Positions 44,019-52,443 of a stretch of DNA of 64,000 nucleotides are shown here, in pieces. Source of the DNA: an uncultured Bacteroidota bacterium (GTDB lineage Bacteria; Bacteroidota; Ignavibacteria; UBA10030; UBA8401); assembly GCA_963717445.1 (NCBI GenBank), contig OY970334.1, forward strand, positions 901,798-965,797, in the 5' to 3' direction. Positions within the stretch are counted from its first letter, which is position 1, and the number at the start of each line of letters is the position of its first letter. A model generated the notes under the pieces. That model saw only the letters and a list, made by a program, of their open reading frames with translations, made no database searches and was not told the DNA's origin. Position numbers and translations under genes: made by a program.

Positions 44019-44219
44019 ATGAAAACGTTTAGAAAATATGCTATTATGGTCTTCGTCGTTCTAGCTACTGTGCTCGGCACCGCGTGGTATTACGCTTCGC
44101 GCGAGCAGTTTATCCGAGTGTCATTGATTTGCTATGGTTTCTTGGTCGGCTACCTGGCAGCGTGGTTTCACATCGGACGCCGTCTAGAATTTAGAAAGTT
44201 TGGTAATGACTCATTTTGA
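44019..44219 (+). CDS. hypothetical small two-TM membrane protein (66 aa); its last codons lie inside the terminal repeat of element X
   Basis: The product is MKTFRKYAIMVFVVLATVLGTAWYYASREQFIRVSLICYGFLVGYLAAWFHIGRRLEFRKFGNDSF. The stop TGA at 44217-44219 falls inside the GGTAATGACTCATTTTGA terminal repeat. Confidence 0.3.
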   Translation: MKTFRKYAIMVFVVLATVLGTAWYYASREQFIRVSLICYGFLVGYLAAWFHIGRRLEFRKFGNDSF

Positions 44220-44754
44220 GAAAGAAAATCGAGTTTCTGAGGTTTAATGGAGTTAGTGTATGTTACTTTCTTTCCGAGGAAGTAACCAAAGAAATCTCTC
44301 GTCCGAAGGACCCCTTCGGGGAAATCGTAACACACGGATTCAATCCCAGCCGCACATGCCGTCAATTTCGGTGCAAGAGAGCGTCGAATATTTTGGTTTG
44401 ATGGTCAAGCGCCGAAATTGAAACCCTTCGATTGAATCCTTCCCGTCCGCAGACCTGACGATTTCGATTAATGTTGCAAAAGCTGCATGTGTTGTATCCT
44501 CGGAATCGGGGGCAGTGGGGGGTGGGGGCGATGCGCGCGTTGAGAAAACGGCTGGCATGTGCAGGTGGCAAGGGGGAGCCGTTTTCTCTTAGCTATGTGC
44601 AGGAAAGCATCGCCAGCATTCCGATTCCGAGAAGCTCTTCCCGCTTTCCAAAAATATGAAAGGCGGGATCCCGTACAGCGGGACTTTGCTTCTTTCTCTG
44701 GTACCAGAGAAAGAAGGATGACTTCAAGCCTATTATTCAAAATGAGTCACGACC
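44202..44754 (+). mobile_element. family-2 MITE-like structured element X (553 bp) with 18-bp terminal inverted repeats and an 8-bp target-site duplication
   Basis: The left terminus is GGTAATGACTCATTTTGA. The reverse complement of the right terminus is GGTCGTGACTCATTTTGA. It is flanked by the perfect direct repeat GAAAGTTT (44194-44201 and 44755-44762). It is about 85-90% identical to the reverse complement of 49894-50520. Confidence 0.65.
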
Positions 44755-44933
44755 GAAAGTTTTCAAGATTTTTATCGAATGATTCCGGAGCTTAGGAAAA
44801 CACGCCGCCGCTCTACATGATCCTCCGACTTCGCTTCCCGAAGGGATTCCTTGGGACATGATGACTATTTAATATTTTCTTTGAAAAAGCAAATTAGGAC
44901 ACTACCGAATATTTTAATTGATTAAGGTAATCC

Positions 44934-49893: not shown

Positions 49894-50520
49894 GGTAGTG
49901 ACTCATTTTAAATGATAGTCTCGAAGTTACTCTTCTTTCTCTGGCGCCAGAGAAAGAAGCAAAGAGAGCTTCTCAGAATCGGAATGCTGGCGATGCTTTC
50001 CCACACACAGCCGGGAGAAAACTGCTCCCGCTTGCCACCTGGACATGCCAGCCGTTTTCTCAACGCACGCATCGCCCCCCCACCCCCACTGTCGCCGATT
50101 CCGAGGATACAACACATGCAGCTTTTGCAACAATAATCGAAATCGTCAGGTCGGCGGGTGGGAAGGATTCAATCGAAGGGTTTTCCCGAAAGGGATCCCT
50201 TGGGGACAATTTCGGCGCTTGACCATCAAACCACAATATTCGACGCTCTCTTGCGCCGAAATTGACGGCATGTGCGGCTGGGATTGAATCCGTGTGTTAC
50301 GATTTCCCCAAAGGGGTCCTTCGGACGAGAGATTTCTCCCGCTTTAAAAACAAAAAAGGCGGGATGCCGTAAAGCGGCATTTGGTTACTTTTCCCGCTTC
50401 TATTAAAAATTTTAAAGAGCGGGATCCCGTACAGCGGGACTTCCTCGGAAAGAAAGTAACATACACTAACTCCATTAGACCTCAGACGCTCGTTTTTCTT
50501 TCTCAAAATGAGTTGCTACC
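49894..50520 (-). mobile_element. family-2 MITE-like structured element Y (627 bp), inverted copy of X
   Basis: The left terminus is GGTAGTGACTCATTTTA. The reverse complement of the right terminus is GGTAGCAACTCATTTTGA. The right end lies 3 nt from the GH9 stop (50524). The left end lies 19 nt from the transporter start. Confidence 0.6.
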
Positions 50521-50523
50521 TTT

Positions 50524-52443
50524 CTATTGAGCATCCTGGAGCAAAGACAAATAGGTTACAGCACCAATCGCATGATAAAAAGGAACACCCCACACTTCTT
50601 GGGTATTCCATTCGACGGCATTTAACGTCTCCATATATGGAGTGTCGTCCAATCGTCCGACAAAACCGTCCACCGTGGCGTCGGGAATACGATAATTCAC
50701 GAACGATGCAATAACAGGATGTCTGAAACCAATGCCGGTGAAAAGACAAAGACCCGTGGTGTTATGGCCAGTCGCCCATTGAATCAATTTCTCACTTTCA
50801 TCGCGGTAAAGTTCTTTTTTCCACAGGAGAGCGGCCCGTGCAAGGAGGTAGGCGTGTTGCATAAGAACGGCATCGGTTCCATGTACCATTTCCTGCGCAT
50901 TGAGCGGGCTGATGAATGTACGAACATAATTCCCCCCGCCAGCGTCGCGAAACGTCACTTCATCGGAATGGAGCGGCTTCACAAACACACCGTACGGTGT
51001 CACCGAAAACGGATTGCTCATAGCATCTTTCAAAATGTAGTTCTCGATATATCGTTTCACTGCTAACCCCGTTCGTTTCGTGAGGTCGGACATCTTGGGT
51101 GCGTCAAGCTCGCACACGCGCAACAACGCCATCGCCGGTTCTGCATTCCACACGATACTGCGGTAGCCGTCGGTCTTCCCCTTCTCGTAGAAATATCCGT
51201 TCAACTGGTATTCGCCGGTTTCCTGTCTACTCATGAGCTCGTTGGCCAATCGTTCAATCTCTTCGCCGCTCACTCGCGCCAGTCCGGATGCGTACAATTC
51301 GCAAGCAGCGAGCAATTCTTCTGCGACAAATAGTGTTCTGCCGTCATGCTTCACCTTCTGACTGTATTTCCATCCCAATTCGGCAAGGTGCTCGCACTTC
51401 AAAGCATCTGCGGCATCGAGAACCCGCGAAGCAAAGACCTGATTGCGGATAAAAAGAAATTGGCAGACCGGGTTATACGTGGTGCGAATTTTTCTCTCGT
51501 CTCCGTTCTCCTTAATATTGTCGCTCTTCCCTTCACCGGAACCGAGGCACCCTGCATGGTTTTCACACCACCAATCGTCCTGATAATTTTTTCCTCCACG
51601 CAGAGGCCCACTCCCGATATCTTCGTATACTCGTCCCTCAGGAGTGATCATCGCTTGAAAGAACTTATTTCCCCATTTGATTTCATCGAGGGCATCTTCC
51701 CTGTAAGCAGGATCAGCATGTTGCACAATCATGGAGAGGGCTTCGATATGCGAGCTTGTTTGCGAAATCCACTTACGGAAATCTCCCGCGTCGTTCCAAC
51801 CGCCGGCAGCCGGAACATACGACCCATCCGTATCAAGAACCCCGTCGTCTGCGTTCTCGAGCGGCCGTATGCCGGGGGTCTCAATTCCCGACCGCTGACA
51901 ATGTAAATAGTTGAGATAGCTCCGGATCAGACGCTCGTACGGATTGCGTTCAATCACGAATGGAGTTGTGAAACCGTACTCAGTTTCAATCTGGTAGATT
52001 CCCGGTTGATTGAATGCGGTGAAATCACCCTGCCAGAATGTCCCCCAACGGCTGGCGATTTTTTTTAACGTCCCCCAGTACGCAGAAACACCGGCTCTGG
52101 ACTTATCATCTCCGGCATATTTCCCCTTGTCAATGTCGAACGGCCAATCAAAGAAAGCGCCAGTCCAAGCTTTCGGCAGGTGCTGTTCCCGTTTCATGCG
52201 TGAAAGCAGGCGATCGACATAGAAGGGAATTTCGTCAGGAAGCGCCGAGTCCGCGGGGGAAGGCAACAACGTTACAGTCTTCGGACCTAATTCCCGAAAC
52301 CCAAGTTGCGATGTTACAACAGTAGGCTGGGTTACATATGTCTTGCAGACTTCCTGTGATTCAAGATGTCCGGCAGAAATCAGGAGAATGATAATGAGTG
52401 GAGCCGATGCTTTTCTTAAGACCATTTGGGTTAGAGCGATCAT
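50524..52443 (-). CDS. glycoside hydrolase family 9 (endoglucanase-like)
   Basis: AGGWNDAGDFRKW is the GH9 signature (GGWYDAGDhvKf), and the protein has an (alpha/alpha)6 fold length. The start was placed at an internal ATG that precedes a signal-like segment. Confidence 0.65.
   Translation of the reverse strand: MIALTQMVLRKASAPLIIILLISAGHLESQEVCKTYVTQPTVVTSQLGFRELGPKTVTLLPSPADSALPDEIPFYVDRLLSRMKREQHLPKAWTGAFFDWPFDIDKGKYAGDDKSRAGVSAYWGTLKKIASRWGTFWQGDFTAFNQPGIYQIETEYGFTTPFVIERNPYERLIRSYLNYLHCQRSGIETPGIRPLENADDGVLDTDGSYVPAAGGWNDAGDFRKWISQTSSHIEALSMIVQHADPAYREDALDEIKWGNKFFQAMITPEGRVYEDIGSGPLRGGKNYQDDWWCENHAGCLGSGEGKSDNIKENGDERKIRTTYNPVCQFLFIRNQVFASRVLDAADALKCEHLAELGWKYSQKVKHDGRTLFVAEELLAACELYASGLARVSGEEIERLANELMSRQETGEYQLNGYFYEKGKTDGYRSIVWNAEPAMALLRVCELDAPKMSDLTKRTGLAVKRYIENYILKDAMSNPFSVTPYGVFVKPLHSDEVTFRDAGGGNYVRTFISPLNAQEMVHGTDAVLMQHAYLLARAALLWKKELYRDESEKLIQWATGHNTTGLCLFTGIGFRHPVIASFVNYRIPDATVDGFVGRLDDTPYMETLNAVEWNTQEVWGVPFYHAIGAVTYLSLLQDAQ

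Follow-up and report, generated by a model that had tools for sequence, protein, structure and literature searches.

The window analysed here is a 64-kb stretch of contig OY970334.1 from an uncultured Bacteroidota bacterium of the class Ignavibacteria, and our subject is a pair of related non-coding elements, X and Y, which lie in it in opposite orientation and are bounded by terminal inverted repeats (TIRs). Homologues of proteins encoded in the window are listed under names such as Ignavibacteriaceae, Ignavibacteria and Bacteroidota bacterium, which points to an Ignavibacteria-like host within the Bacteroidota. An earlier reading of the letters alone (the original prediction) had listed the genes between the two copies, and our Pfam searches agree with this list: CE15/GCE, PfkB (ribokinase) and a GRP-type transporter were found between the copies, and GH9 was found outside Y. 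For the other two entries of the list the matches were weak. The propeller gene gave weak beta-propeller hits, and the integrase remnant, a frameshifted C-terminal tyrosine recombinase fragment on the minus strand between the propeller gene and the ribokinase (47524-47768), matched Phage_integrase at E=0.002. The positions of the features are summarized in Table 1.

Table 1. Positions of X, Y and associated features in the window
Feature	Position	Strand	Remark
Element X	44202..44754	+	553 bp, non-coding, TIR-bounded; nhmmer E=2e-138 vs family profile
Left TIR of X (GGTAATGACTCATTTTGA)	44202..44219	+	gives new stop codon TGA to truncated small gene
Right TIR of X (GGTCGTGACTCATTTTGA on minus strand)	44737..44754	-	
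Subterminal 13/14-bp palindrome (helix H8) of X	44689..44716	.	93% conserved across 16 copies
Plug-in twin-hairpin module in X (TCCCGC...GCGGGA + TCCCG...CGGGA)	44639..44683	+	not at this position in Y
Left copy, X target-site duplication (GAAAGTTT)	44194..44201	.	single GAAAGTTT at this place in relative L027
Right copy, X target-site duplication (GAAAGTTT)	44755..44762	.	
Small membrane-protein gene truncated by X	44019..44219	+	reads RKF, then GNDSF (stop) out of TIR
Displaced original 3' end of small gene (SRFLSNDSGA, stop)	44763..44795	+	back in frame after removal of X and one duplication copy
Tentative third-copy right-end remnant	44836..44906	+	family-type module 44836-44857 and TIR-like GCAAATTAGGACACTACC ending 44906; not detected by nhmmer
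Element Y	49894..50520	-	627 bp, inverted relative to X; nhmmer E=8e-130 vs family profile
Subterminal palindrome (H8) of Y	49932..49959	.	
Short twin-hairpin module (GGGATCCC-centred) in Y	50184..50206	-	not in X
Two long twin-hairpin modules in Y (50337-50379, 50392-50439)	50337..50439	-	not in X
Transporter-proximal copy, Y target-site duplication (TTTCATTG)	49886..49893	.	single TTTCAGTG in relative L019
GH9-proximal copy, Y target-site duplication (TTTCTATTG, one extra T)	50521..50529	.	holds GH9 stop codon
GRP-type sugar transporter (48874-49875) and ribokinase (47804-48754)	47804..49875	-	cut off from GH9 by Y
GH9 gene	50524..52497	-	ancestrally first gene of GH9-transporter-ribokinase string, now split by Y

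X and Y had been described as inverted copies that differ by block indels made of hairpin modules, and this description held. Reverse-complement alignment yielded five collinear blocks (131 nt at 98% identity, 108 nt at 93%, 122 nt at 89%, 82 nt at 91% and 74 nt at 85%), which are separated by block indels, and substitutions amount to about 8% over the aligned positions (42/508). The near-identical inverted termini were also recovered. The terminal motif GGTAGTGACTCATTTTGA (up to three mismatches) occurs exactly four times in the 64 kb, as compared with a chance expectation of 0.04 from shuffled sequences, and these occurrences are the four element ends, all pointing inward. At each of these ends the TIR is 17-18 nt long, and the termini of the family can also be given as GGTAGTGACTCA. 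About 35 nt inside the same (inner) end, both elements carry the palindrome CTTCTTTCTCTGG-NN-CCAGAGAAAGAAG, as had been predicted. Their GC content (49-50%) compares with a genome average of 48%, and an nhmmer search with the family profile detected no third copy in the window.

For comparison we used 27 contigs (L001-L027), which together with the window comprise 270 kb. The 8-bp repeat GAAAGTTT is perfect and abuts X at zero offset on both sides. That it represents a genuine target-site duplication, as originally proposed, can be seen from L027, which carries it once: window positions 44017-44201 and 44755-44809 map to L027 positions 1947-2131 and 2124-2178, the two mapped stretches overlap by exactly one GAAAGTTT, and DNA homology to L027 resumes after X. 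In-silico removal of X together with one GAAAGTTT yields an in-frame open reading frame (ORF) of 71 residues (ATG at 44019 joined to 44763-44795). In a database search many homologues of exactly 71 residues were retrieved, which are 65-80% identical to the spliced small protein, and their C-termini (RKFSRFLADDSGV) agree to the last residue with the spliced end (RKFSRFLSNDSGA) and not with the actual RKFGNDSF. On the basis of this gene model, these data show that X was inserted after codon 61 of a conserved gene of 71 predicted codons, the last ten residues of which are apparently exchanged for five read out of the TIR. X thus takes away the C-terminal end of a conserved small membrane protein, and it puts 553 bp plus about 180 nt between the small gene and the CE15 gene.

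Y is flanked by the pair TTTCATTG and TTTC(T)ATTG, a duplication that had not been reported in the original prediction. In the relatives L019-L022 (long ENA contigs), which share a 91% identical transporter, the GH9 gene ends 13 nt before the transporter start and the ribokinase comes next. On L019, window positions 47846-49893 and 50518-52390 correspond to two neighbouring stretches, with an overlap of about 11 nt around the octamer TTTCAGTG, which is present once in L019 and twice in the window (the second time with one extra T). The GH9 stop codon lies inside this octamer and reads TGA in the relative and TAG in the window (50524-50526, CTA on the forward strand). As predicted, Y fills the gap between GH9 and the transporter, leaving 3 nt to the GH9 stop codon and 18 nt to the transporter ATG at 49875. 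These comparisons show that Y was inserted inside a tight gene string, on the stop codon of GH9 and 13 nt ahead of the transporter ATG, and its duplication left GH9 a stop codon and the transporter its original upstream sequence. The proposed insertions into promoters have to be dismissed, since X lies in the 3' part of the coding sequence of the 71-codon gene and Y on the stop codon of GH9. By the insertion of Y the transporter and the ribokinase are uncoupled from the GH9 cellulase, which probably alters the expression of these genes. The original prediction that a promoter for the transporter must lie within Y or upstream of it is reasonable; we infer that the two genes are expressed either by read-through across the 627-nt hairpin array of Y or from a start inside Y. 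In the relatives an HTH_17 gene follows the ribokinase, which is not the case in the window, and the region left of the ribokinase is therefore a mosaic.

Additional sequences of interest were found on both sides of X. Outside its right end we observed a module (TCCCGAAGGGATTCCTTGGGAC), followed by the right-TIR-like GCAAATTAGGACACTACC, and homology of the CE15 locus to its relatives starts with the next base (44907). Possibly a third copy was cut by a rearrangement here and this segment is what is left of it. CE15 relatives, whose synteny is different, could not provide the empty site of X: they carry a GDSL lipase upstream, and window homology is restricted to the region from 44907 onwards. 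In the intergenic region upstream of the small gene, two 24-nt inverted repeats of 88% complementarity (43654-43677 and 43863-43886) bound about 233 nt and look like the ends of another small TIR element.

The original prediction had called for further copies elsewhere, and such copies were found. When representative genomes were scanned with a 20-mer taken from the block of highest conservation, six contigs of one metagenome-assembled genome (MAG) with seven copies were returned, and a metagenome scan added seven more contigs. Thus, 14 further copies were obtained, at least seven in MAG JAGVPT01 (Bacteroidetes bacterium DeMMO3_9) and seven on metagenome contigs, and none of them comes from the organism of the window. 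Over the core, their identity to X is 72-79%. Two scans of viral contigs gave chance 17-mer matches or nothing, and blastn searches of plasmid and phage collections with X gave no match. The neighbours of the copies are functionally unrelated (asparaginase, Ser/Thr kinase, GT2 glycosyltransferase, outer-membrane protein, peptidases, FKBP isomerase), and the downstream gene has the orientation of the copy in 7 of the 10 cases that could be scored, a proportion short of significance. Most outside copies have TIR-like ends at the equivalent positions, and the copy on L009 is bordered on both sides by the perfect 8-bp duplication TATCTTGG. No copy of the family contains a conserved ORF; the copies, which range in size from 476 to 627 bp, are set apart by frameshifting indels.

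Four contigs (L005, L006, L012, L018) stop inside the subterminal palindrome, as expected for a dispersed repeat, and the family is a recurrent assembly breakpoint in short-read contigs. One of them, the Logan contig L018 from the same strain, is 99.9% identical to window positions 46811-49961 and ends in the palindrome of Y. Two contigs carry different copies at the same intergenic site beside the asparaginase gene (L001 4063-4612 and L013 3994-4522). Their flanks are collinear and 90.7% identical; the copies are 83% identical, have different loops and occupy almost the same point in opposite orientations, and re-insertion or replacement has therefore to be assumed. In MAG contig JAGVPT010000211 (L002), the first hairpin (H1) of the copy contains a 140-nt insert (about 2560-2700), which has inverted ends of its own (TGTGTAAAAAGTA) and is flanked by GCGAGA, and a tandem or inverted array of a unit of about 40 nt lies beside it (about 2780-2960).

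Taken together, these data indicate, with a probability of roughly 0.85, that X and Y are two independently inserted copies of a non-autonomous transposon family that resembles MITEs (miniature inverted-repeat transposable elements): the TIRs, the duplications with their empty sites and the multiple dispersed copies are all in place. This repeat family is previously undescribed and belongs to a poorly studied lineage; literature searches turned up no paper describing MITEs in Ignavibacteria. The combination of TIRs with a duplication of fixed length (8 bp) points to a DDE transposase that acts in trans and makes staggered cuts. The four termini of X and Y read GGTAATG, GGTCGTG, GGTAGTG and GGTAGCA, so that GGnnnTG (G at positions 1, 2 and 7) fits three of the four. 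When the right end of IS1A (GGTAATGACTCC) was checked in E. coli, its first 11 nt were identical to the left end of X; identity stops after 11-12 nt, and there is no subterminal similarity. IS1 generates duplications of 8-9 bp. GGnnnTG ends are common to the IS6/IS26 family, which makes 8-bp duplications, and to the IS1 family (PMC6807381). A DDE transposase of the IS1 or IS6/IS26 type that recognizes GGnnnTG ends might thus move the element in trans, and the resemblance of the ends is best regarded as a lead to these families and not as membership.

To describe the element interior, eight helices (H1-H8) were drawn by hand from an alignment (A3) of 16 copies. The paired arms are GTTACTTTCTTTC / GAAAGAAAGTAAC (H1), TCGAAATCGT / ACGATTTCGA (H2), GGATTCAATC / GATTGAATCC (H3), CAATTTCGGTGC / GCACCGAAATTG (H4), CTCGGAATCGG / CCGATTCCGAG (H5), GCGATGC / GCATCGC (H6) and RAGAAAACGGC / GCCGTTTTCTY (H7), and H8 is the subterminal palindrome. 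In this structure 95.7% of the alignment cells pair, as compared with 34-52% when the partners were slid by 1-3 columns, and 49 of the 86 helix pairs are invariant. Folding of each strand against shuffled sequences gave z-scores of -7.9 and -7.2. Among the seven paralogues of the single MAG, identity is 95.9% in the stems and 94.9% in H8, as opposed to 50.8% in the H4 loop, 57-68% in the TIRs and 45-46% in the arms. A similar distribution was seen for the differences between X and Y, which affect 3 of 167 stem positions and 39 of 341 positions elsewhere (Fisher p=1e-4). Despite their sequence turnover the loops keep a constant length (58-60 nt in hairpin H4, 51-53 nt in the H2-H5 spacer). No conserved internal pairing was seen in the H4 loop. 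We considered this loop as a target guide and rejected the idea, since the loops of X and Y are 97% identical and their targets differ.

A decaying selfish repeat should lose all its parts at an equal rate, and in active lineages the TIRs should be kept best. Here the pattern is the opposite: the helices are fixed and the termini drift. Since the stems are kept while loops, arms and TIRs drift, both arms of every helix are under sequence-level constraint, which could be imposed by RNA, by single-stranded DNA in the course of transposition or by sites for proteins. We read the element body as a chain of nested helices H1-H8, decorated by twin-hairpin modules at a few fixed positions, and the folded core (RNA or single-stranded DNA) may be under selection, either for propagation of the element or for a role at the host level.

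The block indels that distinguish X from Y are small twin hairpins, and they correspond to four module gains or losses. One module type consists of TCCC-AAA-GGGA followed by TCCC-TTC-GGGA. A longer type consists of TCCCG-loop-CGGGA followed by TCCCGC-loop-GCGGGA and is used in either orientation, and in other genomes a third type was found (TGAGCC-GGA-GGCTCA, then TCAGCC-TTT-GGCTGA). Most modules are centred on the motif GGGATCCC, of which the window has three occurrences, each within X or Y; in the other loci it was seen only within copies. The modules occupy fixed positions, namely inside H1, after ACCAA, before H3, after H4, in the region of the H5 3' strand and before H8.

A closer pair of copies is provided by L005 (1199-1769) and L008 (2890-3450), which are orthologous and about 99% identical across arm, loops and core in surrounding coding and intergenic DNA of about 90% identity. 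These two carry different modules in H1, and one of them lacks the module before H8. Since the flanks of the H1 module are copy-specific on both sides, an assembly chimera cannot explain the H1 difference. From both pairs (X/Y and L005/L008) it follows that the modules are gained and lost at a higher rate than that at which point substitutions build up. The block of near-identity starts 55 nt outside the presumed TIR in the left flank, and it reflects either strong constraint or selection, or a recent recombinational replacement.

Several observations weigh against the interpretation of X and Y as copies of a mobile family with a conserved folded interior. Only these two copies are known within the 64-kb window, and at 553-627 bp they exceed the usual MITE range of 50-500 bp (PMC10969869). 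In most copies outside the window the TIRs are degenerate and the duplication is unrecognizable, and these copies must therefore be old. A full-length parent with a transposase and the same termini, for which a search had originally been recommended, was not found in the 270 kb of window and comparison contigs: a tblastx search with E. coli IS1A gave no match there, and a TIR-motif search for an autonomous copy returned element ends only. Because no autonomous partner or transposase with matching ends came to light, trans-mobilization and the assignment to IS1/IS6 are put forward only as inferences. As to the helices, covariation is slight, with double changes in 5 of 86 pairs (3 according to RNAalifold), and a strand bias of G-U over A-C pairs is absent, the wobble test (25 vs 35 cells) being uninformative on the RNA strand. 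With slight covariation and no strand bias, the helices could be kept as sequence, for instance as protein sites, and not as RNA structure. Finally, some of the module differences among metagenome contigs (L010, L011) could be assembly chimeras.

Three other accounts of the pair were considered. The original prediction had left open whether X and Y form a composite-transposon-like unit or are two separate MITEs. In the first case they would be the arms of a Tn10-like unit, which brought in the CE15-propeller-ribokinase-transporter cassette. The inverted orientation, the four intact TIRs and the mosaic interior, in which genes have other neighbours in the relatives and an integrase remnant is present, would suit a composite, and MITE pairs elsewhere in bacteria can mobilize the genes between them (PMC10969869). 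However, X and Y are each bordered by a separate 8-bp duplication, and for each of them a relative shows the empty site; the outer flanks (GAAAGTTT and TTTCTATT) are unmatched, so that there is no shared outer duplication, and the right boundary cuts an ancestral operon, since transporter and ribokinase (inside) are contiguous with GH9 (outside) in the relatives. From these private duplications, the unmatched outer flanks and the cut operon we conclude that the pair was not delivered as a composite transposon, a scenario we now regard as highly improbable, and that the alternative of two independent mobile MITE-like insertions stands. Even less credence can be given to an immobile origin, by which the repeats would be chance duplicates of a regulatory region, or of a leader conserved in synteny, that belongs to sugar-utilization genes. 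Each copy is indeed found upstream of a carbohydrate gene (CE15, transporter) and in the orientation of that gene, but the relatives L019 and L027 lack the sequence at the two sites, so that no conserved syntenic leader exists, and other copies flank asparaginase, Ser/Thr kinase, glycosyltransferase, peptidase and FKBP genes. Movement without a DDE enzyme, as a REPIN/PATE-type element driven by a Y1 enzyme (IS200/IS605 or RAYT) or as a retro-element, appears very unlikely. The abundance of hairpins, the RNA-like look of the core and the GTAG in the termini, which is the tetranucleotide of REP sequences, would fit such a mechanism. In contrast, the clean 8-bp duplications at X, Y and L009 together with TIRs of 17-18 nt are the hallmark of staggered-cut DDE transposition, whereas elements of the IS200/IS605 type make no duplication and have no TIRs; moreover, no linked transposase was seen.

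A further possibility extends the interpretation as a MITE-like family and does not compete with it. The core might be a functional structured device of non-coding RNA or single-stranded DNA, which is carried by the TIR transposon as its vehicle or has become domesticated, each genomic copy being kept by selection and the loops perhaps acting as copy-specific determinants. The contrast between stems (about 95% identity) and loops or arms (45-55%) among old paralogues of one genome speaks for this idea, and so do the avoidance of stems by substitutions even in the young pair X/Y, the constant loop lengths, the tolerance of insertions at loop or junction positions only, the presence of UUCG-type mini-hairpins and the divergence of the L005/L008 flanks around almost identical copies. 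Other data point the other way. Rfam searches at gathering and permissive thresholds gave no family match, and the region 43900-50800 gave only chance-level matches (E up to 5). Scans for sigma-70 promoters and intrinsic terminators gave no signal above shuffled sequences, with a tool that does not cover Bacteroidota-type promoters, and inspection by eye revealed no outward Bacteroidota-type TAnnTTTG box. In addition, covariation and wobble bias are nearly or completely lacking, the orientation of the downstream gene agrees with that of the copy in no more than 7 of 10 cases, X and Y share their loops at different targets, and the L005/L008 block, which reaches 55 nt past the TIR, fits recent recombination equally well. 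We consider a functional core less likely than not. In its fullest form the idea is rather unlikely and is offered as speculation: the core of about 400 nt might represent a new family of mobile structured RNA or single-stranded-DNA modules of Ignavibacteria-like Bacteroidota, with a scaffold of nested helices that is invariant in sequence and kept by selection at each locus, with copy-specific loops of constant length and with rapidly exchanged twin-hairpin plug-ins, which travels on, or has been captured by, an IS1/IS6-type TIR vehicle and acts on neighbouring transcripts or on its own transposition.

Elsewhere in the window we noted two tRNA genes (38060-38456) and an unrelated dispersed repeat of about 130 nt (8173-8303, 17062-17193 inverted, and 10850-10928). 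The two best window copies of this repeat are 95% identical to each other and 83-84% identical to a copy in the contig of a relative (L023 5840-5971), and it is probably another MITE family.

For the locus itself, our data correct the picture in that no composite transposon brought in the sugar genes. Beyond it, the family offers a tractable case for the question of whether the interiors of bacterial MITEs are functional RNAs. Should the core turn out to be functional, the copies would not be junk, and they would act on neighbouring transcripts (processing, stability, insulation) or on their own transposition. On the practical side, the family can serve to mark variation at strain level and also assembly breaks, since the palindrome forms the end of several contigs.

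When compared with known systems, the family shares GGnnnTG ends and the 8-bp duplication with the IS1 and IS6/IS26 families (IS6/IS26: PMC6807381), from which it differs by the lack of a transposase gene and of any similarity past the first 12 nt or so. Two inverted copies that bracket 5.1 kb of genes call to mind Tn10-like composites and the MITE-flanked integrons of Acinetobacter (PMC10969869). Prokaryotic MITEs such as QMITE2 of Coxiella and MITEAba12 of Acinetobacter (PMC10969869) are similar in being non-coding, TIR-bounded, multi-copy and mostly intergenic, with stably folding predicted transcripts and with direct repeats that are present in young copies and decay in old ones. Unlike the usual MITEs, our family is larger, has a GC content at the genome average instead of being AT-rich, and has an interior that is far better conserved than its TIRs, and its parent insertion sequence was not found in the window and the comparison contigs. 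BOX of Streptococcus pneumoniae, ERIC/IRU of enterobacteria, the BIMEs of E. coli and BrickBuilt combine, as X and Y do, a conserved backbone with a variable number of modules, blocks at fixed internal positions and strong predicted folding; the family is not known to be related to any of them in sequence. BrickBuilt of Porphyromonas gingivalis (PMC4596501) is a MITE whose host belongs to the same superphylum, and it combines a variable interior with leader and tail ends. The modules of X and Y are twin mini-hairpins (TCCC-loop-GGGA twice), and in this respect the family is unlike the systems that are built from tandem 23-nt bricks or from boxB units.

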